DNA of 64,000 nucleotides, from contig JAOAKB010000001.1 of NCBI GenBank assembly GCA_026413865.1, positions 69,624 through 133,623 on the forward strand, given 5' to 3'. Positions within the stretch are counted from its first letter, which is position 1; every line of letters starts with the position of its first letter. The translations under genes were made by a program, and so were the position numbers. The notes beneath the pieces were generated by a model. That model did not search any database. It saw only the letters and a program-made list of their open reading frames with translations, and was not told where the DNA came from. Shown piece after piece: positions 1,010 to 57,156 of this stretch. Origin of the DNA: Nitrososphaeria archaeon. Lineage in GTDB: Archaea; Thermoproteota; Nitrososphaeria; JACIWG01.

Positions 1010-3673
1010 ATGGTAAGAAAGGCTATAGCTTTAACCATACTTATTACAATAATATTGTCAACATCACCATTAACATCATATGCAGAACAATCCAAAGAAT
1101 ATTATGAGAACATCACATTATATGTTATTGGAAAAAATGTTCTAATAAGATATAATTTTACTGGAACAAATATTGGAATAATAGACCCACAATTTTTAAG
1201 AGAAAAATTTTCTGGCATAGATTATTTTAGATTCTATATAAGCCAATTTGACATGTCTTCCACAGAAATCACATACTTTAACGGACTAGGATACAATATA
1301 CTTTTATGCAACAGCACAGTTCCAAACATAGCGACATTATACATTCACTCAAAAACATTCCAGGAAGCAAACAAGTTTGCAGAGGAAATTGAAAACCTTA
1401 CAGGCCTATCATTCATTTCTTATGGAAAAGATGGTGAAATGTTCGTATTTATTTCACCAGCTTCATTTACGGACGTTCTAGAAAATTTTGTATGGCAAAC
1501 AGTCCCAATATCATATGGTGGATTCACACACTTACTAAACAAAAAGGACATACTTTCTTCAAAAATAAAAGAATTTGGTGTTATAGGAAAATTTGTGGAT
1601 GGAAGACTCTATCAGAGTATAGTAGTTAATATATTAAAGACAAACATTTATTCTGGAAACATGCTTAGAAGTGGACTAGACATCTTTCTCATAACTAGAG
1701 TAAATAGTTCAACCGATTCTAAGTTAAGCAGTCTAAAGATAATATCCTATGGACAAGTTATAGAAAAAAGTGATACAGGATATGTTAGAAGTAAAATTGA
1801 CAAAAAAGTGTCCGAACTTACTCTAACTATTCCAGGAAATAATGTTTTACACTTTCCAAACATAACATTATCCATAGGCACACCAAGCATTATAGTACAA
1901 AGAGAAATTTCAAAAACAGCCCTAAAATTTGGTGAAGAATTTGAGGTTCAGATAAAAATAAGGAATGTGGGAACATATGATGCAGAAGACATAAACTTTG
2001 AAGATAGATGGTGGATCGAGAATGGTAAGTTTACACTTACAGTAGGAAAATATTCTGACAAGATAAGTAGGCTGGGTCCAGGAGAAAACTATACTACAGT
2101 TTATAGGTTAAAAGTTCAATCAAAGGATACAGATAGCATATATGTTAAACCATTAGAAACAATATACTTTTGGAATGTTGCAGGAGAAAAAGTAAGCTTC
2201 AGATCTTACTCAAATGACGCACATGTTCTCTTGAACCAGGATGCAGCATCAGTATATGTTCTCGCTACAACATCCTCTTCAAAAGTAAACTTTGGAACAG
2301 GAAGAGAAACTGTTCTTGAAATAAAGAATAAAGGTAGTTTAACAGCCTTCGATATAGTAGTAGGTGGAGAAAAGATAGCGAACTTACTTCCTCAAGAAAG
2401 TGTAAAAAGGATATTAAGGTTTGACTTAGATAATGTAAGCCAACCTTTTAAAGAAGAAGTTATACGATGCCAATGGAATGATGGAAAAGAGATAAAAAGT
2501 TCAGTATCAAACAACATTATGTTAACAAACACTTACGGTAAAGTGGGAATCACAATATTAAGCTTAGAAAAGGAGGTTAAACAAATTTCTTTAAAAGATA
2601 AGATATTATTAAATCTAACATTGTATTTAAAAAGTTTTGGGGCAAAAGATGCATACAATATTACTATTTTAGAAAAAGTTCCAAAAGGATTAAAATATGT
2701 TAATGGAACCTTTACTTTAAAAGAGGAAAAAATATATCTTTTTGAAGGAAGAATAGCTGCAAATAGTTCAAAAACATACACATATCTTCTCGAGGTAGAA
2801 GACTACAGCAAAAATTATGTTCTAGAGCCAGCCTATGCAGAATATATTGTTGGTAGCCAAAAATATGCTAGCTTAAGTACACTAGAAGGAATTCCAATAG
2901 GATTAAAGATAATAATATATTTGGAAGATACCGAGGTCTTCCAAAACTATAATGTTAGTGGATATTATGCCATAAACAATTTTGGAGACAAAGGTATATA
3001 CAGAGTTTCAGCCCAACTCGTTTACGGCAAACCATTAAACATAACAACGGCAAGTTCAATAAACAAGACAATAATAAAATCAGGTTCACAGGAAAAAGTA
3101 TTTTTTACTGTAAATGGAAGAGAAGTTGGCTTAAACAACAGTATTTTTGTGAAAACAAAATATTTCTTTGGAGGAAAACAGTATATAGTAAATTCGACCA
3201 AAAAATACATTAATGTATATCATCTTCCAAAAATAGCGTTTTCAACTGAAGGAGATACTATCGAAGGTAAACCCTTTGAAATTAAGATAATTATAAAAAA
3301 TGATACACCGTTAAAGATTGAGAAAGTACAATTTAATATCACAGTACCAGCACAAATTAAAATTGTAGAAAACCTTTCACCATCTACAGCAAAGATTATA
3401 GAAAATATTGTTAAAGCAGAAATTGGAGCACTTGAAGGTGGAAGGGAAGAAATCATAGTTTTAAAAATGCTTAGCAGTAGTGCAAGAGAATATACCATAA
3501 GCACTTCAGAAATACTATTCAACTATAAAGGAGAAGTTCTTAAGACGGAACCACAGACAATTATATTAAGAGTTTCAGACGATCTAGTTTCAAGATACAT
3601 TATACCGCTTATAATAACAATTATAATAATGATAATTGGAAAGATAGCAATAGGAATTGTTAAAAAGAGATAA
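1010..3673 (+). CDS. Large secreted/surface protein with a signal peptide, repeated beta-sandwich (CARDB/DUF11-like) modules and a C-terminal TM anchor; possible S-layer or adhesin glycoprotein
   Basis: Signal-like N-terminus MVRKAIALTILITIILSTSPLTSYA|EQ. The C-terminus YIIPLIITIIIMIIGKIAIGIVKKR is a single TM helix with a basic tail. Roughly twenty N-x-S/T sequons by eye. Recurring segments FEVQIKIRNVGTYDAEDINF, ETVLEIKNKGSLTAFDIVV and PFEIKIIIKNDTPLKIEKVQF resemble CARDB-type Ig-like domains. Confidence 0.5.
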   Translation: MVRKAIALTILITIILSTSPLTSYAEQSKEYYENITLYVIGKNVLIRYNFTGTNIGIIDPQFLREKFSGIDYFRFYISQFDMSSTEITYFNGLGYNILLCNSTVPNIATLYIHSKTFQEANKFAEEIENLTGLSFISYGKDGEMFVFISPASFTDVLENFVWQTVPISYGGFTHLLNKKDILSSKIKEFGVIGKFVDGRLYQSIVVNILKTNIYSGNMLRSGLDIFLITRVNSSTDSKLSSLKIISYGQVIEKSDTGYVRSKIDKKVSELTLTIPGNNVLHFPNITLSIGTPSIIVQREISKTALKFGEEFEVQIKIRNVGTYDAEDINFEDRWWIENGKFTLTVGKYSDKISRLGPGENYTTVYRLKVQSKDTDSIYVKPLETIYFWNVAGEKVSFRSYSNDAHVLLNQDAASVYVLATTSSSKVNFGTGRETVLEIKNKGSLTAFDIVVGGEKIANLLPQESVKRILRFDLDNVSQPFKEEVIRCQWNDGKEIKSSVSNNIMLTNTYGKVGITILSLEKEVKQISLKDKILLNLTLYLKSFGAKDAYNITILEKVPKGLKYVNGTFTLKEEKIYLFEGRIAANSSKTYTYLLEVEDYSKNYVLEPAYAEYIVGSQKYASLSTLEGIPIGLKIIIYLEDTEVFQNYNVSGYYAINNFGDKGIYRVSAQLVYGKPLNITTASSINKTIIKSGSQEKVFFTVNGREVGLNNSIFVKTKYFFGGKQYIVNSTKKYINVYHLPKIAFSTEGDTIEGKPFEIKIIIKNDTPLKIEKVQFNITVPAQIKIVENLSPSTAKIIENIVKAEIGALEGGREEIIVLKMLSSSAREYTISTSEILFNYKGEVLKTEPQTIILRVSDDLVSRYIIPLIITIIIMIIGKIAIGIVKKR

Positions 3674-3675
3674 AA

Positions 3676-5136
3676 TTATGCACGTTTAAGTGGAACAGAG
3701 AAGGTTTCTTCAATTTTTGGCCTATGAATTGTATTCATGCTACAGAAGGGAATTATTCGCCCATCAGGAACAACATAGTGTATTCCACATCTTTCAACCC
3801 GTTCAAGGTCAAAATTATATGGGTCCATAAAATGCATGTCACCAACCATAACAATTTTTCTCATAAACTTGCCAAGTGAATGGTATGAGCCATTAGAAAG
3901 GAAAGCACTAACCAAAGATGACAGTGTACCCAAACTCACATGCCTTAAAGCAGCTGCAGCCTTAAGCTTACCCCTAGTCTTCTTTCCAGAAGACATTGTT
4001 TCAGCAGCACTCGATAATGCTTCAACAAACTTTTCAACATTAGCATACTTAGTTATTGGAGCATAATCGTTCTTTTCCTTATCAATAACAAGAAAAGTTG
4101 CAGCACCACAGTTCTGATGAACAGTAAAAGTTGGCTGTTGCACACCCTTTATGCCAGCTAAAAAGTCAGAGATAGGTGCCACAAATGGAATAGGATACCA
4201 ATCCTCCATTTTTATCTTACCATTAGTCTGTTTTTCCGCATAATTAATTACATCAGAAGTAGTAATCCTATATTCGAGAAGCTTTGAGGTATCTATTCTA
4301 CCAGCAAATGATACTGGCTGAAAGTTTACACATCTAACAACATCACTATTTTTTACACCAAACTCTATAAGCGCTCCAATTTCATTATCATTTATACCCT
4401 TAACTACAGTTGGAACAAGAACAAGACTTTCATGCCCAAGAGACCTTAGATTTTCTATTGCCTTAAGTTTAATGTCAAGCAAATCAGCACCCTTCATTTT
4501 AATATATGCTTCCCTATTCAGACTATCAAAAGATAGGTAGAAGGTGCTAACACCTGCTTCAATCAATTCCTTCAAATACTCTATATCCCTAGCAATACGT
4601 ACACCATTAGTATTCACTTCAACATGCTTTATTCCAATCTTTTTAGCGTATCTTATAATTTCAGGAAGATCATCCCTTAGAGTAGGTTCCCCGCCGCTCA
4701 ATTGCACAGCATAAGTTGGAACAGGCTTATTGTTGCGCAAATTATCTAACATTTCTTTTACCTTTTCAAGAGAAGGCTGATAAAGGTATCCGACTGCAGC
4801 AGCATTCGCGAAACATATTGGGCAACGAAGATTACATGCGTTTGTAACATCCACTATACCTAGTATGGTATGAGTTTTATGCTCATCACATATACCACAA
4901 TCAAATGGGCAGCCGATAGCTCTTCTTGTTCTAGGATTTTCTAATCCACGCCCAAGACGCTCATATTGTTGGACACGCTTATACCACCTATAATCTGACA
5001 TATATATGTCCTTAAAATCACCATGCTCCACACAACTTTTTCTCATATAAACAATATTATCTTCAACATATATTTCTGCTGGAATCACCTTATAACATAC
5101 TGGACAAAGACTCCTTGTATACTTAATATGCTCCAA
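3676..5136 (-). CDS. Radical SAM protein, probable tetraether lipid synthase (Tes / GDGT-MAS family)
   Basis: Radical SAM motif CNLRCPICF (CxxxCxxC). N-terminal rubredoxin-like Cys pairs (CPVCYK...CVEHG) and a second Cys cluster CPFDCGICDEH. The ~490 aa size and architecture match my recollection of the archaeal Tes family. Confidence 0.55.
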   Translation of the reverse strand: MEHIKYTRSLCPVCYKVIPAEIYVEDNIVYMRKSCVEHGDFKDIYMSDYRWYKRVQQYERLGRGLENPRTRRAIGCPFDCGICDEHKTHTILGIVDVTNACNLRCPICFANAAAVGYLYQPSLEKVKEMLDNLRNNKPVPTYAVQLSGGEPTLRDDLPEIIRYAKKIGIKHVEVNTNGVRIARDIEYLKELIEAGVSTFYLSFDSLNREAYIKMKGADLLDIKLKAIENLRSLGHESLVLVPTVVKGINDNEIGALIEFGVKNSDVVRCVNFQPVSFAGRIDTSKLLEYRITTSDVINYAEKQTNGKIKMEDWYPIPFVAPISDFLAGIKGVQQPTFTVHQNCGAATFLVIDKEKNDYAPITKYANVEKFVEALSSAAETMSSGKKTRGKLKAAAALRHVSLGTLSSLVSAFLSNGSYHSLGKFMRKIVMVGDMHFMDPYNFDLERVERCGIHYVVPDGRIIPFCSMNTIHRPKIEETFSVPLKRA

Positions 5137-44714: not shown

Positions 44715-45514
44715 GTGGGTGGATTGCCCACTGACAAGGAGTTTAGAGGAGTAGAAGATATACCTGAACCTTTTAAAGTTACAAGATTCAAAGATGCCAT
44801 AGGATTCCTTATAGGTCCAGCAATAATTTCCGTTTCAGTCGGAATAGGAACGGGGGAGGTTATTTCTGGACCACTGGCAATATTATCTTATGGGCCAACA
44901 ATCCTATGGTTTGCACTAATATCAATATTCTTCCAAACAGTTAGTGCCATTGCAGGAACAAGATACACAATGGCAACAGGAGAACCTCTGATAAATGGTA
45001 TTTCAAGACTTTGGCTTGGAAAAAAGTTTGGGCCATAATCTGGACAGTTTCAGACTTTGTTAGATTAATGTGGCCATACTATATGGTATTAACAGGCACA
45101 AAATTTGCATACATAACACTCGGTAGGCCTCCAGAGGCGCCTGAACAATACCTTGTTGGTGTATTAGGTGTTGTCGGTCTGTTCATAGGAATATTACCAT
45201 TACTGTTTGGTGAAAAGATACAGAAGACACTAGGATGGCTTTCATGGTGGGATGTGGTTATTGAGGTTGGCATAATCGTTATACTCACACTTTTAGTAGT
45301 GCCAGCAAATGTTCTGTTTGAAGTTTTTGTGGGATTCTTTTCTTTTGGATCATTACCGTCTGGTGTAAATTTTGTACTGCTTCCAAAAGCGTATAAGATG
45401 AAATGGTGAGAGATACTTGTTATTATTGTGGGACTGGTTTTCTACTCGATAATATTTGTTGCCTTTGTACTTCTTTGGAATAAGGATATAACCACATCCT
45501 CTCCCCTTTTTTAG
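44715..45514 (+). pseudogene. Decayed Nramp-superfamily-like transporter gene, a paralogue of 60337-61773
   Basis: The reading frame shifts -1 in the A6 run at 45020-45025. An in-frame TGA lies at 45407-45409 and is followed by 34 more hydrophobic codons. Total length is only about half that of the intact 478-aa paralogue. Both fragments align with the paralogue (GEPLINGISRLWLGKK|VWAIIWTVSDFVRLMWPYY versus GETIMQGFHKLKPRKFWTWFTAIFVFIQQAWPAW). Confidence 0.7.
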
Positions 45515-45584
45515 TTACTTAACCGGTTTTTATGAAATAAGAGTAGATTCTATAGCAAGTAACCTAGGAAAAGAATTTTTGATG

Positions 45585-45658
45585 CGGGCCTGCCGGGATT
45601 CGGACCCGGGACCCTCGGGTTAAAAGCCCGATACTCTACCTGGCTGAGCTACAGGCCC
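45585..45658 (-). tRNA. tRNA-Lys (anticodon UUU)
   Basis: The reverse complement folds by hand into a cloverleaf: acceptor GGGCCTG/CAGGCCC, D arm GCTC-AGCCAGGTA-GAGT, anticodon arm TCGGG-CTTTTAA-CCCGA, variable loop GGGTC, T arm CCGGG-TCCGAAT-CCCGG, discriminator G. No intron and no encoded CCA. It is a GC-rich island in AT-rich DNA. A TATA-like ataattatagg lies about 30 nt upstream. Confidence 0.92.
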
Positions 45659-45690: not shown

Positions 45691-45879
45691 TTATTCTTTT
45701 TTCTCTTTTTTGTTGTATATAAAAATTTTTAGGTAGTTTAGTATTGTTATTGAGGTTAGTATGAATGTGATGAGTGCTGCTGTTGTATTGTTTATTTTTT
45801 CGTATATTATTAGGAGTATTGTTGCTGCAAGTAGGCCTATATAGAGAGCCATTGTCTCGTGTAGATTTTGTATTATCAT
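45691..45879 (-). CDS. Small two-TM membrane protein, last gene of the minus-strand pilin-like trio
   Basis: 62 aa with two hydrophobic helices and a basic tail (KKEKKE). Its start overlaps the upstream gene's stop by 4 nt. Confidence 0.4.
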   Translation of the reverse strand: MIIQNLHETMALYIGLLAATILLIIYEKINNTTAALITFILTSITILNYLKIFIYNKKEKKE

Positions 45880-46280
45880 GGTCCCTTTGTATAGTATGCT
45901 ATGATTTTGTTATCCGATTTCAGGTATATGGTTTTTTGCACGTCTATTGGTTTTTTTATTTCGAGTATGGCTATTGAGTTTGGTGGTATAGTGTTTTCTT
46001 TACATATACTCATGTTCGCGTATTTTAGAGAAAATGGTGCGCTAGTGTTTCCTAGTACAGTTTCTGTTATTTTTATTGGTACGGGGTTTGGGTTGTAGAG
46101 TATAAGTTGAGATAATGAACCATTCACTGTTTGCAATATTTCAAGCTTGTATACTGTTTCTGGAGAAAATGTTATGCTGCCAAACGTTTGTGTGTAAGTT
46201 GAATATAGTATTGTTGATGTTATGATCGTTAATGTTAATATTATTAGTGGAGTTGTTGCAGACGATAATGCTTTAGCCAA
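45876..46280 (-). CDS. Pilin-like protein with a class III (prepilin-type) signal peptide
   Basis: N-terminus MAKA|LSSATTPLIILTLTIITSTILY is a short basic leader, a small residue, then a ~20-aa hydrophobic helix. The C-terminal part is beta-rich. Confidence 0.5.
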   Translation of the reverse strand: MAKALSSATTPLIILTLTIITSTILYSTYTQTFGSITFSPETVYKLEILQTVNGSLSQLILYNPNPVPIKITETVLGNTSAPFSLKYANMSICKENTIPPNSIAILEIKKPIDVQKTIYLKSDNKIIAYYTKGP

Positions 46281-46628
46281 CTATATCACCCTAAAATTTT
46301 CTCCAGACACACATACTAGAGTTAGATGATAAAGTTGTGATAAATTTGCTGGCAAAAATATTTCAGTAGCTTCATACGGTTTTAGGCATAGGATTTCAGA
46401 CAAAGAATATTCTCTATTGTTTACAATAAGTTTTGAAACATAATATTCCATTGGACTATTGTTCTTCAAAAATATTATGGTACATTTATCAGAATTAAAG
46501 TAGCCTAATAATTCTATTCGAAGAAAATTTGGTCGAACTTCAAATACAGGCATGCTAATAGCTGTTAGCGGAGAAAGTATTAATGTCAAAGCAATCAGAC
46601 ATAATATTTCATCAAACACTGACTTCAA
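46281..46628 (-). CDS. Small secreted/pilin-like protein (N-terminal hydrophobic helix)
   Basis: TTG start. MKSVFDEILCLIALTLILSPLTA followed by a beta-rich domain. Abuts the next gene with no gap. Confidence 0.35.
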   Translation of the reverse strand: MKSVFDEILCLIALTLILSPLTAISMPVFEVRPNFLRIELLGYFNSDKCTIIFLKNNSPMEYYVSKLIVNNREYSLSEILCLKPYEATEIFLPANLSQLYHLTLVCVSGENFRVI

Positions 46629-46714: not shown

Positions 46715-47143
46715 ATGCAAACAAAAAAATTGTTTAATAAAAGAAGAGGTTTAAGCAGGGTCCTCACAGAAATAATATTTCTAATGCTAGCAACAACTAC
46801 AGCATTAGGAGCCTACACAATATACAATGGCTACAGTTCAAGCGTGAGTGGAACAACAAAAATTGCAATAGAGCAAGTGGACATTATAGCATCACAAAAT
46901 AAGGCATATGCTACAATAAAAAATTTAGGCACAACAGTTATTCAAGCAATAAATATAACGGTATCAGGAGCAGAGCAAAAATTTTCTGATATCTCTATAG
47001 CACCTGGTGGAGTAAAAACTTTTGAATTAAACTTAGATAACATTGTTTCAGGCAAACAGTACACAGTTGTTGTAAAGGTTTTGGATACAGATAAAAAGTC
47101 AATATTGTACACAGCAACATATACAGTAACAGCTAAACCATAA
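46715..47143 (+). CDS. Type IV pilin-like protein (class III signal peptide + Ig-like domain), paralogue 1
   Basis: MQTKKLFNKRRG|LSRVLTEIIFLMLATTTALGAYTIY. The C-terminal beta-sandwich-like sequence is ATIKNLGTTVIQAINITVSG...YTVVVKV. Confidence 0.7.
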   Translation: MQTKKLFNKRRGLSRVLTEIIFLMLATTTALGAYTIYNGYSSSVSGTTKIAIEQVDIIASQNKAYATIKNLGTTVIQAINITVSGAEQKFSDISIAPGGVKTFELNLDNIVSGKQYTVVVKVLDTDKKSILYTATYTVTAKP

Positions 47144-47154
47144 AGGCGAATTAC

Positions 47155-47580
47155 ATGAAAAAGAGGAAAGCTCTTTCCAGAGTTCTGACAGAAATCATCT
47201 TCCTAATTTTAGGACTTACTACAGCAGTAGGAGCATATTCACTATATAATAGCTCTATTTTATCTACTAGTCAGGTTGCAAAGATTGTTTGCACAGACAC
47301 AATCATAGCTGCTGGATCACAGGAAGTGAATGTTATAGTAAAGAATATCGGGAATATTGCAGTAGAAGTTTCTGTTGAAGCAGTAAGTGAATATGGTAGA
47401 AGTGAAAATCTAAGCATAACAAAAGGAAATAGAATATTATTGGAGCCTGGAATGGAAAAAATGATTACCACGAAATGTTCGGGTTTAATTGCAGGGTTAA
47501 GGTACAACGTTTTCGTTACGGCAAGAGTCAATGACGAGATAGTTGGATATGTTATTGCTGAAAGTATAGCATTACCTTAA
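47155..47580 (+). CDS. Type IV pilin-like protein, paralogue 2
   Basis: MKKRKA|LSRVLTEIIFLILGLTTAVGAYSLY has a mature N-terminus nearly identical to the upstream paralogue. It is followed by VIVKNIGNIAVEVSVEA...YNVFVTA. Confidence 0.7.
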   Translation: MKKRKALSRVLTEIIFLILGLTTAVGAYSLYNSSILSTSQVAKIVCTDTIIAAGSQEVNVIVKNIGNIAVEVSVEAVSEYGRSENLSITKGNRILLEPGMEKMITTKCSGLIAGLRYNVFVTARVNDEIVGYVIAESIALP

Positions 47581-47636: not shown

Positions 47637-49187
47637 TTGATGAAAACAGGTAAAGGAATACTGACGGATATTTTTTGGAAAGAGCCTGAAGAAAAGTTTA
47701 GGGAAAGACTTTTTACTCAAGCGTTAGGTAATAGGATCAGGTTTCTAGATTTTTCTGATTTTAAAGGTAGGCTTGTTGACAGTTATGTTCTTGATTTAGG
47801 TGAAATGTATAAGCCTATAGTGTACATTTTTGATTGTGGCAATTTTGGATATTATTATGTTAGAGAGCCTAATATTGATGGCGAAGATAGAGAGTGTTTT
47901 ACTATTGTTCTTGGATACCTTTTATCTTCTACAAATTTTAATGAAAATTTTTATAGCATAAATTTTTTGGAGGACAAAATTTTTGATATTATAAAAGAGG
48001 TTGGACTAGATGTTAGCTCTAGTAAGGTTAAACTTTTTTCAGAAATCATTTTCCGTGAAGTTTCAGGCTATAGTGTATTAGAGCCGCTTATGGCAGACGA
48101 TAATATTACTGACATCTCATGCTCCGCCTTCAACCAGCCTGTGTTTGTTAAACATAGAGAGTATTCAGAATATAATTGGATGAATACAAACATAATGTTT
48201 TCTGAAGATGAACTTGACACTTTAGTTCAGAAGATTGCATCAAAACATGGCAAGGGAGTGAATATCCTTTCACCAGCTTCAGAGATTACTACACGCGAGG
48301 GACATAGAATAATGTTAACCTTCAAAAACGAGATAACATTACCCTCATCCACATTTTCAATAAGAAAGTTTCCTAAAAATCCATGGACTATAGCTAAGCT
48401 TATTTCATACAAGACTTTAAACGAGGATTTGGCAGCATACCTTTGGCAGGTTTTAGAAGATAGAAACTTTATTATTATAAGTGGTGCAATGGGATCAGGA
48501 AAGACAACACTTCTTTCAACACTTTTACAGCTTATAGATTTAAGGCAAAAGATTTTAACAATAGAAGATACTGCAGAAATTGCTTTAGGAAAAAGGATTA
48601 ATTGGCAAAGACTGGTTACTAGAAAAGGTTTACAGGCTGGAGTAAATGAAATCAACTTAATTGATTTAAGCCTGCTTTCTTTAAGAAGCTCATCAGACTA
48701 TGTTGCACTCGGTGAAGTTAGAGGGACAGAAATTCAAGCCCTTGTTCAAGCGGCTGGAACAGGGTTAGGCTGCATAACAACCTTTCATGCTGGAAGCTTT
48801 CAAGAACTTTTGAGTAGAATGAGGGGAAAACCACTTTCCGTAGAAGACTCCTTTCTACAGACTATAAAGTGTATTGTATTCTTATCTAATGTTAAAGCAT
48901 CTAGTGGAAAAATCTTAAAAAAAGTTACTTCAATAGAAGAGCCTTATTTTATAGAAGGCGGACTTTTTAAAAGTAATGTAGTATATGATTATAGTGCTGA
49001 TGGAGAAGAAATTAAGCTTGATAAAATAATTTCAAGAAGCAGGCTTATTAATAAAAAGGATGATTATACAGTTAGAGTGTTTAGAAAGAAAGAGTTTCTT
49101 GAAAGCATTTTGAATCATAGGGCATACACCTTCGAGCAGCTTCAGACACATCTTACAAGATTTTATGGTGATAACTTTGGAAACTAG
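47637..49187 (+). CDS. Type II/IV secretion-family assembly ATPase (FlaI/UpsE/VirB11-like)
   Basis: Walker A GAMGSGKTT (48483-48509), Asp box ILTIEDTAEI, Walker B DYVALGEVRGTE and His box TTFHAGS. The likely start is ATG 47640. Confidence 0.88.
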   Translation: MMKTGKGILTDIFWKEPEEKFRERLFTQALGNRIRFLDFSDFKGRLVDSYVLDLGEMYKPIVYIFDCGNFGYYYVREPNIDGEDRECFTIVLGYLLSSTNFNENFYSINFLEDKIFDIIKEVGLDVSSSKVKLFSEIIFREVSGYSVLEPLMADDNITDISCSAFNQPVFVKHREYSEYNWMNTNIMFSEDELDTLVQKIASKHGKGVNILSPASEITTREGHRIMLTFKNEITLPSSTFSIRKFPKNPWTIAKLISYKTLNEDLAAYLWQVLEDRNFIIISGAMGSGKTTLLSTLLQLIDLRQKILTIEDTAEIALGKRINWQRLVTRKGLQAGVNEINLIDLSLLSLRSSSDYVALGEVRGTEIQALVQAAGTGLGCITTFHAGSFQELLSRMRGKPLSVEDSFLQTIKCIVFLSNVKASSGKILKKVTSIEEPYFIEGGLFKSNVVYDYSADGEEIKLDKIISRSRLINKKDDYTVRVFRKKEFLESILNHRAYTFEQLQTHLTRFYGDNFGN

Positions 49188-50940
49188 TACACTATTATTT
49201 TATGTAATGGTACTAACATTTGCAGCTAATCTCATACTATTAATTTTAGAAAAGGATGAAACTCCCGGCAAATGGTTTGAGAAAGTGAACCTTCACCTCA
49301 AGAATAGGTTTTTGAGTTCAAGATTCTTTGAAAAAATTGTTTATGATATTGCCTCAGACCTCATACCAAAATATAAAAGTATTAGCGTTGAAAAAGGCTC
49401 TGACGGACTCCTAGAATATATTGGTGAAATAGTTTACAAGTCGACATTATTCAGCATATTTTCCTTAGCCATATCATTAACTTTAGCATACCTTTTCAAT
49501 AATCTAATAATAGTAATTTTTGGAATATTAAGTTTTACAAGCATATTATATCCCTACATCGACTACCTTCTCTTAAGAGGAGAAAAGGATAGAGAAATAT
49601 ATAATGAACTAATATTTTTTGCATTCACAGAATACATTTGCCAAGAAGGTGGAAGAAATATAGATTATGCCTTAAATCATGTAATTAATGGAAGACTCTT
49701 CAAATGGATTAGGACAGAGGCAAAAATAGTTCTCACAGACCTACTGATACACTCTAAAAATTTATACAATTCTTTAAGAGAAAGAGCTTCAAACACAAAG
49801 GCAACAGTCTACAGAAGATTTTTGGACGGATATGCTGGAATATATGCTACTGGAGGAAACCTTCTCACATACATGAGCCACCAAATGGAGGTTTTAAAGA
49901 ACGATTTAAAATTTAGGATAGGGCAGTTTCTTGAAAAAGCTCAAATGATTTCTGAAGTAAATATTATTTTAACTGTAATAATGCCAATAGTAGTCATAGT
50001 TTCCTCAAACTCTCGAGCCGGCATAATAATGCATGTTATAGCGTTCTCATTCCTAATCATTTATATAATTGCAATGTCATTTTTTATAGAAGATTCCAGG
50101 CCTAAGACTGGACTGGGAAACATTAGAGTTAAACCAAAAGTTTCTGAAATAATATTAGCACTTCTAGTTTTTGTAGCAACATATATTATGTTTAAAAGTT
50201 TATGGCTTCCAATAACAGTAGCACTAATAACATTTTCTACATTATACGGTTATAGGGGAAAATGTAGACTTAAAGAGGGAAAAGATCTTGAGGAACCTTT
50301 ACCAATTTTTGTACGTGATATAGCAGACTATAGGACTGCTGGAAAAAGTATTTACCAGGCAATCACATTATCTTTGAAAGAAAAGGAGTATAATGAAAAA
50401 TTTAAGAAAGAGGTTATGGTGGTTGTAAACAAGCTTTCTCTAAACTCTACAGACCTTAGAACAAGTACGGGTGTGTGGCTTTTTGACTATGTGTTCGATT
50501 GCCTAGACTTAATGCAGAAAAGTGGAGGAGGCAGTACCAGCGTATTAATTGAACTAGCGAACATGATAGAAGATATAATTTTAGAAAAGGAGAAGGTTAG
50601 AAGAGAAACCGCACTCGCTTCATACCTTACTTATCTGGCACCAATACTCTTCACACTTGTTTCAGCATCAATGCTAGCACTTTTAGAAACAATGATAGTG
50701 GGAGCAAATTCTGGAACAAGCCTACTTCCTATCAATGCCATTCAAATAGAAAAGGATTGGCTTTACATGATGATCGTTGCAAACACATTTTCCAATACAT
50801 ATATAACAGGGCTTCTTAAAGAAGGAAGCTACGAGAACATATACATTACGGCTATAACACTGGTTATAGCATTAGTATGTATACTACAAATGGATAACAT
50901 GGTTCACCTTCTAAAAACAACAATTTTTGGCTTAAGGTGA
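49165..50940 (+). CDS. Polytopic pilus platform protein (FlaJ/TadC/UpsF-like, two T2SS-F-type repeats)
   Basis: 591 aa. Two cytoplasmic helical repeats are each followed by TM bundles (...GGRNIDYALNHV...ATGGNLLTYMSHQ... and ...AGKSIYQAITLS...SGGGSTSVLIELAN...). Its start overlaps the ATPase stop by 23 nt. Confidence 0.72.
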   Translation: MVITLETSTLLFYVMVLTFAANLILLILEKDETPGKWFEKVNLHLKNRFLSSRFFEKIVYDIASDLIPKYKSISVEKGSDGLLEYIGEIVYKSTLFSIFSLAISLTLAYLFNNLIIVIFGILSFTSILYPYIDYLLLRGEKDREIYNELIFFAFTEYICQEGGRNIDYALNHVINGRLFKWIRTEAKIVLTDLLIHSKNLYNSLRERASNTKATVYRRFLDGYAGIYATGGNLLTYMSHQMEVLKNDLKFRIGQFLEKAQMISEVNIILTVIMPIVVIVSSNSRAGIIMHVIAFSFLIIYIIAMSFFIEDSRPKTGLGNIRVKPKVSEIILALLVFVATYIMFKSLWLPITVALITFSTLYGYRGKCRLKEGKDLEEPLPIFVRDIADYRTAGKSIYQAITLSLKEKEYNEKFKKEVMVVVNKLSLNSTDLRTSTGVWLFDYVFDCLDLMQKSGGGSTSVLIELANMIEDIILEKEKVRRETALASYLTYLAPILFTLVSASMLALLETMIVGANSGTSLLPINAIQIEKDWLYMMIVANTFSNTYITGLLKEGSYENIYITAITLVIALVCILQMDNMVHLLKTTIFGLR

Positions 50941-50947
50941 TAAAAGT

Positions 50948-52138
50948 ATGGAGAATTTAGAAAACTATAGAATTTTATGCTTAGAAATAACAGTCTATGA
51001 AGAAAATGGGATAATAGAATATAATGTTAAGGAACCAAATTTGGAGGAAGAAAGCTTAAACAAGATTAATGCAATAATAGAAAACATTTTTTCAAAAGAC
51101 ATTTTAGGCAAAAATTTTGAAAAAAACAAATTGATTGAAAAATATGGGTTGAAAGATGAAGAACTATATCATCTTAACAAGAACATATCACCATATAGGC
51201 AACTGTATCCAATACTCTTGGACGAGAATATACTTGAGGCAACAATATTGTCACCCGAAAAACCAGTTTACGTTAGACACAAACACTTTCTAAAACAACA
51301 GTATATCAAAACAAACATAAACTTCAAGAACGAAAAAGAGTATGAAATGCTAATTGAGAAGATTAGAAATAAACTAATAGAATATGGTGATGGAAAATTC
51401 TATGAGGGACCATTAGATGAGAAATTTTACGCAAATCTTGTTATACAAAAGCAACCATATACAAGTTTTTGCATAATCAAAAGAAGGATAGAAATTTTTG
51501 ACGAAGAAATTTTTAAAGATAAGCATTTGACACCACAAGAACTAGCTTATCTTTGGACAATGCTTGAAATAAAAACTACGATGGCAGTCACAGGGTCAAC
51601 AAGAGAATACAGAAGAAACATCTTAAATAAGCTAGTTCAACTTATTCCAAAAAAAGCTCGTATAATGGTTGTAGAAAACACTACCACAACATTATATCCA
51701 CAGGAATATTTGATAAAAATTCATATTACAAAAAGCAAAGAGGAGTTTAAAAAAATCTTCGAAATCATTCAAAAGAATGATATCGAATATGCTATAATAG
51801 AGGGAGAAGAGATAGAAGAAGAAATAAAAATACCTTCTACAAGAAACTGCTACATTTACATGAGACAAACGCCGTTGACTGTCACGAATAAGATTCAGGT
51901 GATAGTGAACATTACAAACAATATTAAATCTAATAGAATAGAGTTGATTGAAGAGTTTGGAGAATATAAGACAAACATTTATTTTGAAGTATATGATGGA
52001 CCAGAAAAAGTTTATGATAAAAGTAGAATATTACAGCATTGGGCAAAAATAAACCATTATAGTAGAGAAAAAGTTTTAGAGACAATTTCACTAAAAATAA
52101 ACTATATACTATATCTACAGGACAATAGGACCTCTTAG
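50948..52138 (+). CDS. Degenerate (predicted catalytically dead) paralogue of the secretion ATPase
   Basis: Collinear with the 516-aa ATPase: ILLDENILEATILSPEKPVYVRHK versus LMADDNITDISCSAFNQPVFVKHR, and ELAYLWTMLE versus LAAYLWQVLE. Walker A is replaced by VTGSTREYRRN (51587-51619), the Asp box is IMVVENTTT, and the His box is lost (CYIYMRQ). Confidence 0.7.
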   Translation: MENLENYRILCLEITVYEENGIIEYNVKEPNLEEESLNKINAIIENIFSKDILGKNFEKNKLIEKYGLKDEELYHLNKNISPYRQLYPILLDENILEATILSPEKPVYVRHKHFLKQQYIKTNINFKNEKEYEMLIEKIRNKLIEYGDGKFYEGPLDEKFYANLVIQKQPYTSFCIIKRRIEIFDEEIFKDKHLTPQELAYLWTMLEIKTTMAVTGSTREYRRNILNKLVQLIPKKARIMVVENTTTTLYPQEYLIKIHITKSKEEFKKIFEIIQKNDIEYAIIEGEEIEEEIKIPSTRNCYIYMRQTPLTVTNKIQVIVNITNNIKSNRIELIEEFGEYKTNIYFEVYDGPEKVYDKSRILQHWAKINHYSREKVLETISLKINYILYLQDNRTS

Positions 52139-52169: not shown

Positions 52170-53702
52170 TTGAACAGTATGAAAAGGAAAGGACAGTCTG
52201 CAAGTATAGCAATAGTCTTTATTGCTCTAATGTTTATTTCAGGATACACAATATTCTATAATCAGATTGAGGCATTCAGACAAGAGTTTAGATTGAAAGA
52301 AGATATTTTATCAAGACAGGTTGACAGAGCAAAAGAGAATATAAAGATATTTTATGAAAATAATAAGATTATTTTATATAACGATTGGACAAAATTTTCA
52401 GAAATAAAATATATAGTTTTCTTGAATAAAAGTAACTTTGTAGAGAATGTTGTTGAAACAAAAGTCATATTGCCTCCTGGAGGAAGAGAAAATTTACAGA
52501 TTACATGGAAAAGTGATAAAGTTGGTGTAATAACATCACTTGGAAACCTCTTCTTAAAAGAAAATGAGGACGTAAAAGAGGACATAATACCAGTTGGATT
52601 ATATAATGGAGAGGGAAGCATAACTCCAGTAAGACTCTACATTAATCCAGAAAATCCGAAAGTATTCAATGTGGTTGTAGGATTACATTATGTTTACACA
52701 TATAATATCACTAACTGTCAGTTGATTGCAGTACGCTATGTTGATGCACCACGTTCTCTTGAAGACAATCCTTACAGGGGATGGGTATATTATATGCATC
52801 CTGTTATACCATTCTACGACCTTTCTGGTTGGGCAAGCTGGCAAATGGTTTCCTTCACAAGTGGTAAAGTTAGAACAGTTTATGATACAGCATATATTTT
52901 TGTATACAAGTTCCTTTGTCAATCAGGCGGCCAAAAGGTTGAGAGCGTTACAGGAACAACAACATATTCATACTATATACAGCAGGTTAGTACTGATGGT
53001 AGTAGAGCATGGATACTAATGTTGTCTTCAACATCAGGGACAGGAGCCCAAGTCTTCTATTCTCTTGTTAGTCCCACTAGTTCGAATCCTGGTTCTGCAA
53101 ATGGTTTAGGTGTAACATTATCGGGATCCTCTTATGCTAGTTATGGTATTGTATCATTCAATTACCCTTATTTTATAGTTTACAAGTATGATTCATCCAC
53201 CTACTATTATTATGTTTACAAGATAAGTGGTGGAAGTGCTATAAACAAGCCATGGGCTTCCGGTAGTTCAAGCTCACCATACAAAAGCTATAGTTCACCT
53301 CCAAGTGTTATCATTACAAGAGATGGATACTATATCGAAAGAAACGGTGATTCATTCACATCATATAATATGGAGACTGGAGGATACGGTGACCAAGTAT
53401 TTTGGACTGCACCATATTCTGTACTAGGCTGCAAGTATACAAGATACGGTCTCATACTGCTAAGATGGAACGGATTCGACATACTCAACAGTAGACTACA
53501 GGTTGTAAAAAGTGTTAACCTACCAGAAGGCTACAACTGGTACTATACATTACAAACATACTTTTCAAATTTTGTGAGAGAGAAAACAGACTATGGTTAC
53601 GAATATTTCGAATACCAGCTTTCATTAATAGACTCGAATACAGCACTAGCAATATTATCGGGCCCAGATGGGTTAGCTAAAATAGTTAAACTCACTTTCT
53701 AA
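52170..53702 (+). CDS. Large (about 510 aa) pilin-like protein with a class III signal peptide and a Ser/Tyr/Gly-rich beta-rich C-terminal region
   Basis: MKRKG|QSASIAIVFIALMFISGYTIFY, with the likely start at ATG 52179. The C-terminal half is rich in S/Y/G (SSTSGTGAQVFYSLVSPTSSNPGSANG...YDSSTYYYYVYKISGGS...). Confidence 0.6.
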   Translation: MNSMKRKGQSASIAIVFIALMFISGYTIFYNQIEAFRQEFRLKEDILSRQVDRAKENIKIFYENNKIILYNDWTKFSEIKYIVFLNKSNFVENVVETKVILPPGGRENLQITWKSDKVGVITSLGNLFLKENEDVKEDIIPVGLYNGEGSITPVRLYINPENPKVFNVVVGLHYVYTYNITNCQLIAVRYVDAPRSLEDNPYRGWVYYMHPVIPFYDLSGWASWQMVSFTSGKVRTVYDTAYIFVYKFLCQSGGQKVESVTGTTTYSYYIQQVSTDGSRAWILMLSSTSGTGAQVFYSLVSPTSSNPGSANGLGVTLSGSSYASYGIVSFNYPYFIVYKYDSSTYYYYVYKISGGSAINKPWASGSSSSPYKSYSSPPSVIITRDGYYIERNGDSFTSYNMETGGYGDQVFWTAPYSVLGCKYTRYGLILLRWNGFDILNSRLQVVKSVNLPEGYNWYYTLQTYFSNFVREKTDYGYEYFEYQLSLIDSNTALAILSGPDGLAKIVKLTF

Positions 53703-53734: not shown

Positions 53735-54802
53735 TCATTCAAAATAGGCTATCATGTCAGCATAGTTAATGCGAAGTCTTTTTCCCACATGTTCTGGCAA
53801 AATTTCTATAATCTTTTCAGCAGGCTTATCCCACTTTTCTAGTATATCAAGAATCTTACCCCTAACCAAATAAACTCTGCCACATTGACACTTAAAATAC
53901 GAACTTTTCCTATTCTTCAATTCATGACCATTCAATGGAGCAAGAGAATAAAGAGAACTTTTATCTAAGTTTTCCAGAAAAGTGCTCCTGATAAAATTAA
54001 CTTGACCGCTTTCATCACAAATTTTACACAACCTTTCAATCCTATCTTCAGAAAATGTTAGAGGATCCCTTTCAACAATTGACTTTAAAAGTTCAGCCGA
54101 TTTAGGAAATATCAAGCCACCAGAAACCTTCTCATCTATGATCGAAAGAATCCTCAGTTTTGTGAGAAAATTTGCAACAATCCTTTCAGCCTCCGGCCCA
54201 GAAACATTTCCTTCAAAAAATTCTTTTGCAAAAGACAGCATATCTTTTTCAGGAAGCTTTGAAAGTGCAATTAGATGCCTGAACGTGAATCTGAAACCAT
54301 TTTCAAAATAATCTTCACTAGAATCATTTACTTTATATATAAATTCTTTTACCTCAGCCGACAATCTTGTAAGCTGCAGAATATAGTCTACTGTGTAGGC
54401 TGAAAGATTATATTTTTTGGCAATTTCTCTAACAGTCAAGCCACAATTTCTTTCAATATTAAATAATTCTCCAGCCTTAAGATAATCTATTCTACCCCTC
54501 TGATAGTTCCTTTTAAAACACTCAATCTTAACATCTTCATCAGACAAGTGTACAATTTCAGCTCTAATAGTTTCAAATCCAAGTTCTAGTGCAGCCCTCC
54601 ATCTATGTTCACCATCAACAATCATAAAACCATCAGTCCTTGGCGTAACAAGTATTGGTGGAATACCTTCAACACCCTTTTCTAAAAGGTCCCGCTTTAA
54701 GCTCTCATATTCTTTATAGCACATACGGTTTGCGTTAAAGGGATTAGGATAAACCTTTTTCAGTGGCAGATATGTGAATTCACACTTTGGCCAAGCCTTC
54801 AT
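53735..54802 (-). CDS. ParB/Spo0J-like DNA-binding protein (ParB N-terminal domain + HTH + C-terminal Cys motifs)
   Basis: YPNPFNANRM..., PILVTPRTDGFMIVDGEHRWRAALELGFETIRAEIV (the GERRxRA box with R to H), NYQRGRIDYLKAGELF, and the HTH LTVREIAKKYNLSAYTVDYIL. The C-terminus carries CKICDESG and FKCQCG. Confidence 0.75.
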   Translation of the reverse strand: MKAWPKCEFTYLPLKKVYPNPFNANRMCYKEYESLKRDLLEKGVEGIPPILVTPRTDGFMIVDGEHRWRAALELGFETIRAEIVHLSDEDVKIECFKRNYQRGRIDYLKAGELFNIERNCGLTVREIAKKYNLSAYTVDYILQLTRLSAEVKEFIYKVNDSSEDYFENGFRFTFRHLIALSKLPEKDMLSFAKEFFEGNVSGPEAERIVANFLTKLRILSIIDEKVSGGLIFPKSAELLKSIVERDPLTFSEDRIERLCKICDESGQVNFIRSTFLENLDKSSLYSLAPLNGHELKNRKSSYFKCQCGRVYLVRGKILDILEKWDKPAEKIIEILPEHVGKRLRINYADMIAYFE

Positions 54803-55565
54803 AAGAGAACACCGTAACCTTGTCCAAAACTTTCCTTAGATTGTTAAAGTCTAGACAAAAATGTTTTGAAAGAAGCCTTAATGTTACAGGATTTTCTAGA
54901 CCAAACGACCTGAAAACCCTATTACATGAAACATATATTGATATTATACACTTAACTTTCAAAGACTCACCTAAAAAACGGTAATCTTCCAAAAATTTCA
55001 AGCAATATAGTTTAATTTTAGACCAGAGAATATTTTCGTTTAATTGATAAAAGTTTCTAACATATTCTCTGACAAAAATGTTTGACTTTAAACTTTCAAG
55101 TAAAAAGTTAAGATATGAGCTTAAGTTAAAACTTTTGTAAGAATAATATTTCCAGAACCTTGAAAGAATTCTCATACAGTTTCTTTCATTAACCTTCAAA
55201 CCCATACTACGAAATTCTTTCAAAACCATTTCACAGAAAAATGGATTTAAGTTCTTGCAAGCAGAATAAAGGCTGAAGAAAGCAATTTCAAGACCATTAA
55301 ATCTTGTACCAGACTCTATAATAGATTCTGCAATATAAGATGCATCATTAAGAATGGTGCTATTAAAGTCTAGACGGTCACAAACATCCTTTATTATATA
55401 CAGTATGCTAGAACGCTTAGAGGCAAATGGTTTAGGAAAATTGTGAAAAAAAGGTTTAGACTGATGGTCATATATTTCTTCAAAAATTTTACCACACTTT
55501 TCACAAACATATTCTTCATTATCAAAAACTACTCTACTACCACATTCACTACATTTATATGGCAT
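54780..55565 (-). CDS. Divergent, shortened TFB/TFIIB-like protein (Zn ribbon + cyclin-like repeats, reduced B-reader/linker)
   Basis: MPYKCSECGSRVVFDNEEYVCEKCGKIFEE closely mimics the TFB Zn ribbon. LDFNSTILNDASYIAESIIESG...EIAFFSLYSACKNLN resembles the first cyclin-fold helices. At 261 aa it is shorter than the roughly 300 aa I recall for canonical TFB. It overlaps the ParB-like gene by 23 nt. Confidence 0.55.
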   Translation of the reverse strand: MPYKCSECGSRVVFDNEEYVCEKCGKIFEEIYDHQSKPFFHNFPKPFASKRSSILYIIKDVCDRLDFNSTILNDASYIAESIIESGTRFNGLEIAFFSLYSACKNLNPFFCEMVLKEFRSMGLKVNERNCMRILSRFWKYYSYKSFNLSSYLNFLLESLKSNIFVREYVRNFYQLNENILWSKIKLYCLKFLEDYRFLGESLKVKCIISIYVSCNRVFRSFGLENPVTLRLLSKHFCLDFNNLRKVLDKVTVFSYEGLAKV

Positions 55566-55617: not shown

Positions 55618-55821
55618 CTAAAATTCTATCAAATGCTTTTTAATAGGATCGAGAAAATCTGGAGAAACGGCTCCTATGATATCAAAAATCCTTTTATCAG
55701 TTACAGAAATAATATCACATACACAAAACTCAAAAACATGTAGAAGTGCCAAGATTTTCAGCCTTAGAGCATCACCGCAAGCCCTAAGCAGCCTCGCACA
55801 AACTCTATCCAAACCATTCAT
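55618..55821 (-). CDS. Short ArsR/SmtB-family HTH protein (lacks the wing and C-terminal helix; possibly truncated)
   Basis: ALRLKILALLHVFEFCVCDI matches the ArsR alpha2-alpha3 region with the As(III)-type CVC motif. It is only 67 aa long. It is divergent from acr3 and sits 52 nt upstream of the TFB-like gene on the same strand. Confidence 0.5.
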   Translation of the reverse strand: MNGLDRVCARLLRACGDALRLKILALLHVFEFCVCDIISVTDKRIFDIIGAVSPDFLDPIKKHLIEF

Positions 55822-56052
55822 AGGATTTTTTAAATAAAATATTAGCTAAGCTCATTATTTAACCTTTATAAGAATATTTAAATACTGTTATTTTTATCCC
55901 CAATTTATGCAAAAAATTTATAAAAATTGAGGTATTGAAAATGTCTAAAGCGACACTACTTTCCTGGATTTTAGGCCAAATTCATGATATAGTGAACATG
56001 ACTACAACAAAAAAAGCTTTTTCATCTTATACCATTATAGCAGGCGCCTATA

Positions 56053-57156
56053 GTGAATAGTATAGGCATAAGACTCTCTTTAGAGGTGAAATATGCTTTG
56101 AAAACAGAAAAGAAGCTTTCGATCTTGAACAAGTTTCTAACATTATGGATATTCTTGGCAATGGTTACCGGTGTAGTATTAGGTTACATCTTTCCACAGA
56201 TATCAGTTTACTTGAGTGCAGCAAGCATTGGGACAACATCAATCCCAATAGCTTTAGGCCTTATCTGGATGATGTATCCGCCACTTGCAAAAGTCAAGTA
56301 TGAGGAGTTGAAGGAAATTGTTAGGGCGCCAGGCTCTAAAACCGTTGTCACATCATCACTATTTCTCAACTGGATAATTGGACCAGCCCTAATGTTTGTT
56401 TTAGCGTGGACATTTCTAGCAGATTTTCCAGAATATAGGAACGGTATAATTTTGGTTGGACTCGCACGATGTATAGCTATGGTTATAGTATGGAATGAAT
56501 TGGCTAACGGAGATACTGAGTGGGCTGCTATACTTGTTGCATTAAACTCCATATTCCAGATAGCAACATATTCACTTTTAGCATACTTTTACATCACGAT
56601 TATAAGCTCATGGATTTCTGGAAAAGGTACAATTGTTGAAATTTCATTTTATGAAATAGCACAGTCTGTATTGATATATCTTGGCATACCATTCTTTGGA
56701 GGAGTTTTAACAAGATTCTATTTTCTTAAAACAAGAGGAAAAGAATGGTATGAGAAGATATTTTTGCAAAAGATAGGGCCGACATCACTCTTTGCACTAC
56801 TCTTCACCATAGTTGTAATGTTTTCTCTTAAGGGAGAATATATTGTCAAGACACCATTTGATGTTGCAATAATATCAGTACCATTAATTTCATATTTTAC
56901 AATAATGTTTGCAGCATCATTTATTCTAGGATATTTCATGAAACTAGACTATGAGAGGACGACAACATTATCCTTTACAGCAGCAAGCAACAACTTTGAG
57001 CTAGCTATAGCAGTTGCAGTAACAGTATTCGGAATAACCTCAAAAGAGGCATTCGCTACAGTAATAGGACCACTTATAGAAGTGCCCGTAATGATAGGTC
57101 TAGTTAATGTAGCACTATGGGCAAGAAAAAAATTTGTTAACAAGCAAAAAATATAA
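56053..57156 (+). CDS. acr3: Arsenite efflux permease, ACR3 family
   Basis: [71 protein letters not shown] and LNSIFQI match the ACR3 consensus closely. The true start may be an internal GTG/TTG near 56086-56098. Confidence 0.9.

Follow-up and report, generated by a model that had tools for sequence, protein, structure and literature searches.

The gene and its operon

The gene described here occupies 50948–52138 on the forward strand of a 64 kb stretch of DNA from a Nitrososphaeria archaeon (GenBank assembly GCA_026413865.1, contig JAOAKB010000001.1, positions 69,624 to 133,623). The whole stretch is called the window and is numbered from its first letter. The product of the gene, here called the pseudo-ATPase, has the two-domain fold of the archaeal secretion ATPases FlaI and GspE2 with the residues of the nucleotide site replaced. 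It is encoded in a type IV pilus operon, directly after an active ATPase of the same kind and a TadC-type platform protein. An earlier note on the window, made from its letters alone, had proposed that the gene encodes a maintained, non-catalytic paralogue of the neighbouring ATPase. The gene is laid out as follows.

50948–52138 (+): pseudo-ATPase gene, 396 residues, ATG start, TAG stop, intact; FlaI/GspE2 two-domain fold, nucleotide-site residues replaced
50948–51517 (+): N-terminal domain, residues 1–190, collinear with the N-domain of the ATPase and without its ∼45 leading residues; Arg-finger positions occupied by K159 and K178
51593–51616 (+): former Walker A, GSTREYRR, residues 216–223, equal in length to GxxGxGKT
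51671–51691 (+): Asp-box remnant VENTTTT, with its first Glu (E243) retained and Thr or Ile in place of the invariant second Glu
51788–51823 (+): Walker B remnant YAIIEGEEIEEE; strand and acidic cluster kept, catalytic Glu replaced by Gly or Ala, conserved Arg replaced by Glu or Asp; the deletion of a helix and the His box follows directly

The open reading frame (ORF) is full-length and free of internal stops, as the earlier note had stated, and the motifs quoted there were all located: YNVKEPNLEEE at residues 25–35, LLDENILEATILSPEKPVYVRHK at 90–112, ELAYLWTMLE at 198–207, VENTTTT at 242–248 and the acidic EGEEIEEE, in the position of Walker B, at 285–292. The segment VTGSTREYRRN, said to replace Walker A, spans residues 214–224 (51587–51619 exactly). 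The other genes of the operon are listed below.

46715–47143 and 47155–47580 (+): two pilin genes, 142 and 141 residues; N-termini resembling class III signal peptides (RRG/LSRVLTEIIFL), as read from the sequence
47637–49187 (+): cognate active T2SSE ATPase, 516 residues; Walker A, Asp box, Walker B and His box intact
49165–50940 (+): TadC/UpsF-like polytopic platform membrane protein, 591 residues; the gene overlaps the ATPase gene by 23 nucleotides
52170–53702 (+): last gene of the operon, protein of about 507–510 residues with a pilin-like, BasB-like N-terminus (KRKG/QSASIAIVF)

The stop codon of the TadC gene lies 7 nucleotides before the ATG of the pseudo-ATPase gene, inside a Shine–Dalgarno-like motif (AGGTGA). 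For the last gene of the operon, the mechanically assigned start (52170) is a TTG codon; its orthologues start at an ATG three codons further on (MKRKGQSAS…) and the true start is probably the ATG at 52179.

Orthologous loci were collected from public assemblies (L001–L009 and L012–L019; 17 recovered, of which about 13 are distinct), three loci being contributed by metagenomes of the Joint Genome Institute. In every locus the pseudo-ATPase gene comes directly after those of the ATPase and TadC, and it is separated from the latter by a few nucleotides or overlaps it by 4 nucleotides. The order pilin, pilin, ATPase, TadC, pseudo-ATPase and large pilin-like protein, followed by convergent ParB_N and TFIIB-like genes, is unchanged in every contig of sufficient length, over protein identities from 87 to 39%; this synteny was found in at least nine loci spanning 39–87% identity.

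Homology to secretion ATPases

The pseudo-ATPase aligned with the neighbouring ATPase by BLASTP at E = 3e-12 (24% identity, residues 25–246 against 73–313), and a phmmer search of PDB sequences returned GspE2 (2oap, E = 4.8e-8) and FlaI (4ii7, E = 3e-5). Over the full length, alignment of the family profile with a profile of 27 real ATPases by hhalign gave a probability of 99.94% and E = 2.9e-37 (residues 2–391 against 13–465), with a single conspicuous gap over the segment comprising a helix and the His box. The collinearity with the 516-residue ATPase that the earlier note had read by eye is thus far beyond chance, and non-homology or a chance resemblance of motifs is rejected by the BLASTP, phmmer and hhalign results. 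Models in common use register little of this relationship: the NCBIfam FlaI model matched at E = 2e-10, but with 40 bits against a cutoff of 550, the NCBIfam BasE model scored 22.8 bits against a cutoff of 1000, and Pfam T2SSE (PF00437) gave no match at E ≤ 1.

An AlphaFold2 model of the pseudo-ATPase had a predicted local distance difference test score (pLDDT) of 81, and its top matches in Foldseek were FlaI (4ii7, E = 1e-20, TMq 0.71–0.74) and GspE2 (2oap), with E ∼ 1e-20 and TMq values of 0.70–0.74 over the two. A control model was computed from an alignment of the family only, without canonical ATPases. This model was less confident (pLDDT 68.7) and differed in domain orientation, but GspE2 and FlaI were still ranked first (Foldseek E ∼ 1e-15); the explanation that the fold had been imposed by real ATPases in the AlphaFold2 alignment was therefore rejected. 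Pairwise, profile and structure comparisons agree, and the pseudo-ATPase is confirmed as a homologue of FlaI/GspE2-type (PilT/VirB11-like) secretion ATPases over its full length and not in the N-domain alone.

With FlaI/ArlI and archaeal GspE2 (PDB entries 4ii7, 4ihq and 2oap) the pseudo-ATPase shares the two-domain fold and the order of elements over the whole length, the residues that define the fold, and the encoding alongside a TadC/FlaJ-type platform protein and pilins. It differs from them in that Walker A, the second Asp-box Glu, the catalytic Glu, the Arg that follows it and both Arg fingers are substituted and the helix and His box are deleted. In comparison with its cognate ATPase it is 120 residues shorter and lacks the N-terminal ∼45 residues. 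When real ATPases were ranked against the pseudo-ATPase family profile, the cognate ATPases came only 51st to 134th. A recent tandem duplication of the neighbouring ATPase was rejected on this ground; other real ATPases lie closer to the family, so that either the duplication happened long ago or divergence has gone too far for it to be traced.

Loss of the nucleotide site

Residues of the pseudo-ATPase family were compared with those of 41 real ATPases in one alignment. Positions below are given in the numbering of the window ATPase, with the counterpart in the pseudo-ATPase.

P-loop G283: kept (G216)
P-loop G286: replaced, R219
P-loop G288: replaced, H/Y221
P-loop K289: replaced, R222
P-loop T290: replaced, R223
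Asp-box E310: kept (E243)
Asp-box E314 (Glu in 41/41 real ATPases): replaced, T/I247
R350: replaced, K276
Catalytic E360, in the atypical Walker B motif GExRGxE of real ATPases: replaced, A/G286
R362, the conserved Arg after the catalytic Glu: replaced, E/D288
His box G376, T382 and H384: deleted, with a gap of ∼17 residues in the MAFFT alignment and likewise a gap in hhalign
R394: replaced, Y304
N-domain Arg finger R224 (Arg in 41/41): replaced, K/N/S159
N-domain Arg finger R243 (Arg in 41/41): replaced, K178

The P-loop residues G288, K289 and T290 are conserved in all 41 real ATPases. Residues of the type conserved for the fold are retained, namely Y25, E29, D92, T122, N123, G154, Y201, W203, E336 and S359. 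The absence of a counterpart to TFHAGS, noted earlier, was borne out, and the loss of the catalytic boxes extends further than had been claimed, to the second Asp-box Glu, the catalytic Glu, the Arg that follows it and both Arg fingers.

The elements affected are those that PilT-like ATPases conserve completely or to a high degree (Walker A and B, two Arg fingers, the catalytic Glu, the Asp-box Glu and the His box); in that family they act in the binding of Mg2+ and phosphate and in cooperativity between chains, the Asp-box Glu coordinating Mg2+ (McCallum 2017; PMC5424180). The nucleotide is clamped between the P-loop of the C-domain and the Arg fingers of the adjoining N2D, and the opening and closing of this interface drives the motor (PMC5424180). 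Because both halves of the nucleotide site are degenerate, the pseudo-ATPase cannot be a motor, and from these substitutions we infer that it would no longer bind nucleotide.

Selective constraint and distribution

Ratios of nonsynonymous to synonymous substitution rates (dN/dS) were calculated pairwise by the Nei–Gojobori method (NG86), and medians were taken from pairs with 0.15 < dS < 1.

Pseudo-ATPase: dN/dS range 0.09–0.21, median 0.126
ATPase: dN/dS range 0.07–0.18, median 0.149
TadC: dN/dS range 0.05–0.19, median 0.149

Purifying selection on the pseudo-ATPase is as strong as that on the active ATPase and on TadC, and it extends over all four regions into which the protein was divided (dN/dS 0.11–0.20). 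The motif G-x-x-R-E-x-R-R, which replaces Walker A, is invariant in 17/17 recovered loci, down to 39% identity. Residues 196–235 around the former P-loop form the most conserved block of the protein, with 48% invariant columns against 25% overall in an alignment that takes in members at 41% identity. The gene is uninterrupted in 16 of the 17 loci. The expectation in the earlier note that the gene is maintained and not a pseudogene is in line with these values: selection is not relaxed and disruption is not frequent.

What real decay looks like in this window can be seen 5 kb upstream of the pseudo-ATPase gene, where two short ORFs (107 and 132 residues; 44715–45409, forward strand) are what is left of a membrane transporter, which has 481 residues in L002. 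Relative to that orthologue, the copy in the window carries a frameshift near 45020 and is without about residues 217–422, a deletion of ∼200 residues; it is likely to be a pseudogene or an assembly error.

The family is small. When 1.84 billion representative proteins were searched exhaustively with HMMER, it made up only three clusters at 50% identity. After the family the scores drop from E = 1e-96 to E = 1e-18, and the matches that follow are ordinary ATPases aligned to profile positions ∼1–265 only, all of which contain GxxxxGK[ST] except for one intein-containing protein. Five species-representative genomes of GTDB carry the gene, four of them metagenome-assembled genomes (MAGs) labelled Nitrososphaeria and one labelled 'uncultured archaeon'. 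The labels of the host MAGs overall are mostly 'Nitrososphaeria archaeon', with one 'Micrarchaeia'. A word-indexed protein search, with a mixed alignment, missed the related sequences P0098, P0009 and P0010; counts from it are lower bounds, and the exhaustive search of representatives is the better census.

Short paralogues that keep Walker A

Two further proteins bear on the origin of the pseudo-ATPase. P0013 (392 residues, 18 near-identical metagenomic members; gene at L010 8001–9179) was the best single-domain match outside the family, and P0098 (376 residues, 11 members) is encoded at L011 5128–6258; both are annotated as 'hypothetical protein' only. Their operons consist of a pilin, an ATPase (516 and 512 residues, respectively), a TadC protein (614 and 608 residues), the short paralogue and a large protein, so that the short paralogue occupies the same slot as the pseudo-ATPase. 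The ATPases of these operons share 42 and 39% identity with the window ATPase, versus 33% or less for other ATPases; the TadC proteins are 31–32% identical to that of the window, the pilins ∼31% and the downstream protein of L011 33%. Judged by gene order and these identities, the two operons are orthologous to that of the window.

P0013 and P0098 share with the window family the deletion of the His box, the loss of the catalytic Glu and of the Arg fingers and a length class of ∼375–410 residues. They differ in retaining a canonical Walker A (GAAKSGKT and GDKKSGKT, respectively), P0013 also having both Asp-box Glu residues, and they are only 19–24% identical to the window protein. Alignment of the window family with P0013 by hhalign gave a probability of 98.7% and E = 1.7e-16 over residues 2–366 against 12–373, including the shortened C-terminal domain. 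P0013 and P0098 probably bind ATP without hydrolysing it and act as partners of the pilus ATPase. The window protein fits the class of short second paralogues defined here (encoded directly after TadC in an orthologous operon, His-box segment deleted, catalytic Glu lost), with Walker A lost as well. Beyond what the earlier note had proposed, this places the pseudo-ATPase in a larger group of short second paralogues, not all of which have lost Walker A. Synteny, the orthology of the operons and the shared deletion and other derived characters make a single ancestral second paralogue the simplest reading, in which hydrolysis would have been lost first and the nucleotide site later, in the window lineage. 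Proof by scores that P0013 and P0098 form the sister group failed in a reciprocal phmmer search, an outcome that is expected for less degenerate proteins.

Among the other sequences recovered were two natural tandem fusions of two secretion-ATPase units, P0012 (1154 residues) and P0042 (864 residues). P0012 has full sets of motifs in both units; the Walker B of the first P0042 unit is degenerate (GDLMGGE), and the His-box histidine is present in neither unit of P0042. In several other long matches (for example P0029, P0119, P0130 and P0147) Walker A and Walker B are hundreds of residues apart, which suggests inteins.

Genes flanking the operon

Two groups of genes on the reverse strand flank the operon.

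45691–46628 (−): divergent trio of small genes, 62, 134 and 115 residues, at least one of them pilin-like (MAKA/LSSATTPLIIL)
53735–55565 (−): convergent pair encoding a ParB_N/helix–turn–helix protein (355 residues; ParB_N and ParB-HTH domains) and a TFIIB-zinc-ribbon-like protein (261 residues)

The divergent trio is retained in the related loci whose contigs reach that far upstream, and the ParB_N and TFIIB-like pair adjoins the pilus operon in every related locus that is long enough downstream (including L002–L008 and L016). Taken as a whole, the operon scored below the equivalog cutoffs of the Ups and Bas models: UpsF 177 bits (cutoff 400), BasE 232 (1000), BasF 109 (1300) and BasB 30 (230). 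On these matches the operon is related to the Ups and Bas (bindosome) type IV pilus systems of Sulfolobales and is a member of neither.

At L010 the operon of P0013 is preceded by a TFIIB-like gene and a gene for a 455-residue protein with a DGWHR motif (1748–4085); a tyrosine integrase gene adjoins and an IS605 OrfB gene is near. The 455-residue protein resembles ParB by eye on account of the DGWHR motif, and Pfam gave no ParB match. The module possibly is or was mobile, or the pilus may be linked to the handling of DNA.

Directly upstream of the pilus locus of the window lies a tRNA-Lys gene (TTT; 45584–45658, reverse strand), the sole RNA gene detected in the 64 kb. Downstream, between the TFIIB-like gene and an SBF/ACR3-type transporter gene, the window holds only one ORF of 67 residues at 55618–57156; the corresponding interval in the relatives L002, L003 and L006 contains an ArsR-type helix–turn–helix gene (∼100–110 residues) together with thioredoxin-like and ArsP genes. 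The arsenic-resistance cluster appears to be reduced in the window, and likewise in L005.

Discussion

The gene is considered, with fair but not strong confidence, to encode a FlaI/GspE2-type pilus ATPase paralogue with a dead nucleotide site, kept by selection as a non-catalytic component of a type IV pilus. The tight coupling of the operon and the equal selective constraint indicate that the pseudo-ATPase works with the ATPase and TadC. The interface between N-domain and C-domain, which ATP opens and closes in real motors, would be locked in the pseudo-ATPase; a candidate for what fills the pocket is a network of salt bridges formed by R219, E220, R222 and R223 with the acidic residues E285, E287 and E288 and with K178, R179 and R180 of the N-domain. 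The protein, fixed in shape, might then oligomerize and dock on the ATPase–TadC motor as a scaffold, adaptor or regulator; the earlier note had put forward, likewise as a suggestion, a spacer or regulator within the hexameric motor or stacked on it. It could do so as a separate inert ring stacked on the ATPase, in the manner of ArlH on ArlI or of ATPase-dead PilT with PilU. Alternatively, inert protomers could alternate with the ATPase in an A3B3-like ring of C3 symmetry. FlaI and GspE2, the closest structures to the pseudo-ATPase, are family members with C3 crystal forms (PMC5424180), and the tandem-fused ATPases P0012 and P0042 show rings of two non-identical units to be feasible.

Several observations weigh against this interpretation. 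Interaction, oligomeric state and expression of the pseudo-ATPase are predictions, and its hosts are all uncultured MAGs. The length of the P-loop and its first Gly are preserved and its Lys has become Arg, which leaves room for a deviant anion-binding site. In one copy of the gene, at L019 (19–1149 on a 1.4 kb metagenome contig, with 41% identity to the window protein), a lone in-frame stop occupies the codon of the conserved Tyr83; that gene is otherwise intact and keeps G-x-x-R-E-x-R-R, and either an error of sequencing or a lesion of very recent date could account for the stop. The distribution of the family is very narrow (five GTDB species), so that the part is clearly dispensable for archaeal type IV pili in general. 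Finally, a reciprocal phmmer search from P0013 ranked real ATPases above the window family, and scores do not confirm that the two are sisters.

A more specific version of the proposal would be an obligate two-protein motor, in which the nucleotide-free paralogue is held in one conformation by a P-loop filled with its own Arg and Glu residues and either takes turns with the active ATPase in an A3B3-like C3 ring or makes up a second ring of its own. P0013 and P0098, with Walker A kept and the hydrolysis residues lost, would then be the evolutionary intermediate, in a repeat of the route from F1 α to V-type B. As a whole this version is regarded as unlikely; if true, it would be the first natural heteromeric motor of the PilT/VirB11 family. 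In the rotary ATPases the F1 α and V/A-type B subunits are non-catalytic paralogues that alternate with the catalytic P-loop subunit in the hexamer, α keeping its P-loop and B having lost it. The step from F1 α to V/A-type B is mirrored by the series from P0013-type to window-type proteins, although the rotary ATPases belong to an unrelated branch of P-loop NTPases.

Partners without motor activity are known from related machines. In the archaellum, an ArlH hexamer binds ArlI 1:1 (bioRxiv 10.1101/2021.03.19.436134), and ArlH/FlaH is essential for assembly of the motor (PMC4858521). As a non-motor hexamer of P-loop fold placed on FlaI/ArlI, ArlH offers a functional analogy only: it is a single-domain KaiC/RecA-like protein, not a paralogue of FlaI, and it binds ATP and autophosphorylates, whereas the window protein is a two-domain protein without Walker A that matches FlaI and GspE2 in structure, not KaiC. 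In bacterial type IVa pili a second motor-ATPase paralogue cooperates with the first; PilT inactivated by Walker A or B mutations still supports retraction powered by PilU, the two forming separate, interacting homohexamers (PMC6821130), and an inert ring can thus be an adaptor. PilT and PilU differ from the present pair in that both natural proteins are active with intact motifs, serve retraction and belong to another clade of the family.

The pseudo-ATPase might instead be a brake or dominant-negative regulator that co-assembles with or caps the ATPase hexamer and holds the motor off or slows it. An inert protomer in a rotary hexamer is expected to stall sequential ATP turnover, given the mechanism in PMC5424180, and the retained fold-defining, non-catalytic residues are compatible with a fit to ATPase-type interfaces. 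However, its place in one tightly coupled operon with the ATPase and TadC predicts constitutive co-production and not conditional regulation, an inhibitor made at a fixed ratio to its target would be an odd design, and Pfam and NCBIfam scans of the pseudo-ATPase found no sensory or regulatory domain; such a role is judged improbable. Quite improbable, too, is that the deviant P-loop still binds a nucleotide or another anion and that the protein serves as a sensor or switch for ATP, another nucleotide, polyphosphate or a phospholipid head group. The conserved length and first Gly, the Arg in place of Lys, the strongly cationic site formed by three invariant Arg residues, the high conservation of the surrounding block and the canonical Walker A of P0013 and P0098 are all consistent with such binding, but Arg and His or Tyr stand in for the two other P-loop glycines and Arg for the Mg-binding Thr, the His box has gone along with both Arg fingers and the second Asp-box Glu, and the invariant Glu within the loop would repel phosphate.

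Re-use of the fold outside the motor, for instance in binding DNA or cargo for a DNA-transfer or secretion function of the pilus, would suit the Arg-rich surface at the former active site, the constant adjacency of the ParB_N/HTH and TFIIB-like genes and the position of the related locus L010 beside integrase and IS605 OrfB genes. The slot directly after TadC and the translational coupling point to the motor module, no nucleic-acid-binding domain was found in Pfam and NCBIfam scans of the pseudo-ATPase, and regulators are the simpler explanation for the ParB/TFIIB pair, which lies on the opposite strand; TFIIB homologues are known associates of type IV pilus loci (PMC4858521). This alternative is held to be very improbable. 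That the gene is a decaying ATPase duplicate, a pseudogene in progress, is given next to no weight. The catalytic motifs are all lost, the copy at L019 has its in-frame stop and long-range divergence has been faster than in the ATPase (39–41% versus 56% identity to the most distant loci), but decay is refuted by dN/dS values of 0.09–0.21, equal to those of the ATPase and TadC, by 16/17 intact copies across 39–87% identity and by the invariance of the replacement motif; the truly decaying transporter at 44715–45409 shows, in contrast, a frameshift and a deletion of ∼200 residues.

Pseudo-NTPase subunits are common in other P-loop machines, which makes the principle of an inert ATPase paralogue a familiar one; a case from the PilT/VirB11-like family, encoded in a pilus operon, appears not to have been described before. 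Full-text literature searches (pseudo-ATPase, inactive paralogue, heterohexamer) returned no description of an inactivated FlaI or PilB paralogue, in agreement with the earlier note, which knew of no such feature in characterized archaeal pilus or archaellum motors. The 2016 census of archaeal type IV pili by Makarova, Koonin and Albers (PMC4858521) lists many accessory proteins and no inactivated ATPase paralogue. In the literature searched, the structures and mechanisms of PilT/VirB11-like ATPases were all those of homohexamers, with no heterohexamer among them, and short paralogues of the P0013/P0098 type were not described.

Such proteins are labelled 'hypothetical' everywhere and escape the Pfam T2SSE model, which makes them a problem of annotation. 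The practical impact is limited by the very narrow distribution, a handful of uncultured archaea from hot environments, for which heterologous expression is the only experimental handle. PilT/VirB11-like ATPases power type IV pili, secretion of types II and IV, competence and the archaellum, and the graded series of full ATPase, Walker-A-only paralogue and nucleotide-free paralogue is a natural experiment that could separate the surfaces needed for docking and ring closure from those needed for catalysis. A dead paralogue kept by selection in a pilus operon would demonstrate that such motors can enlist inert copies of themselves in a structural or a regulatory role.

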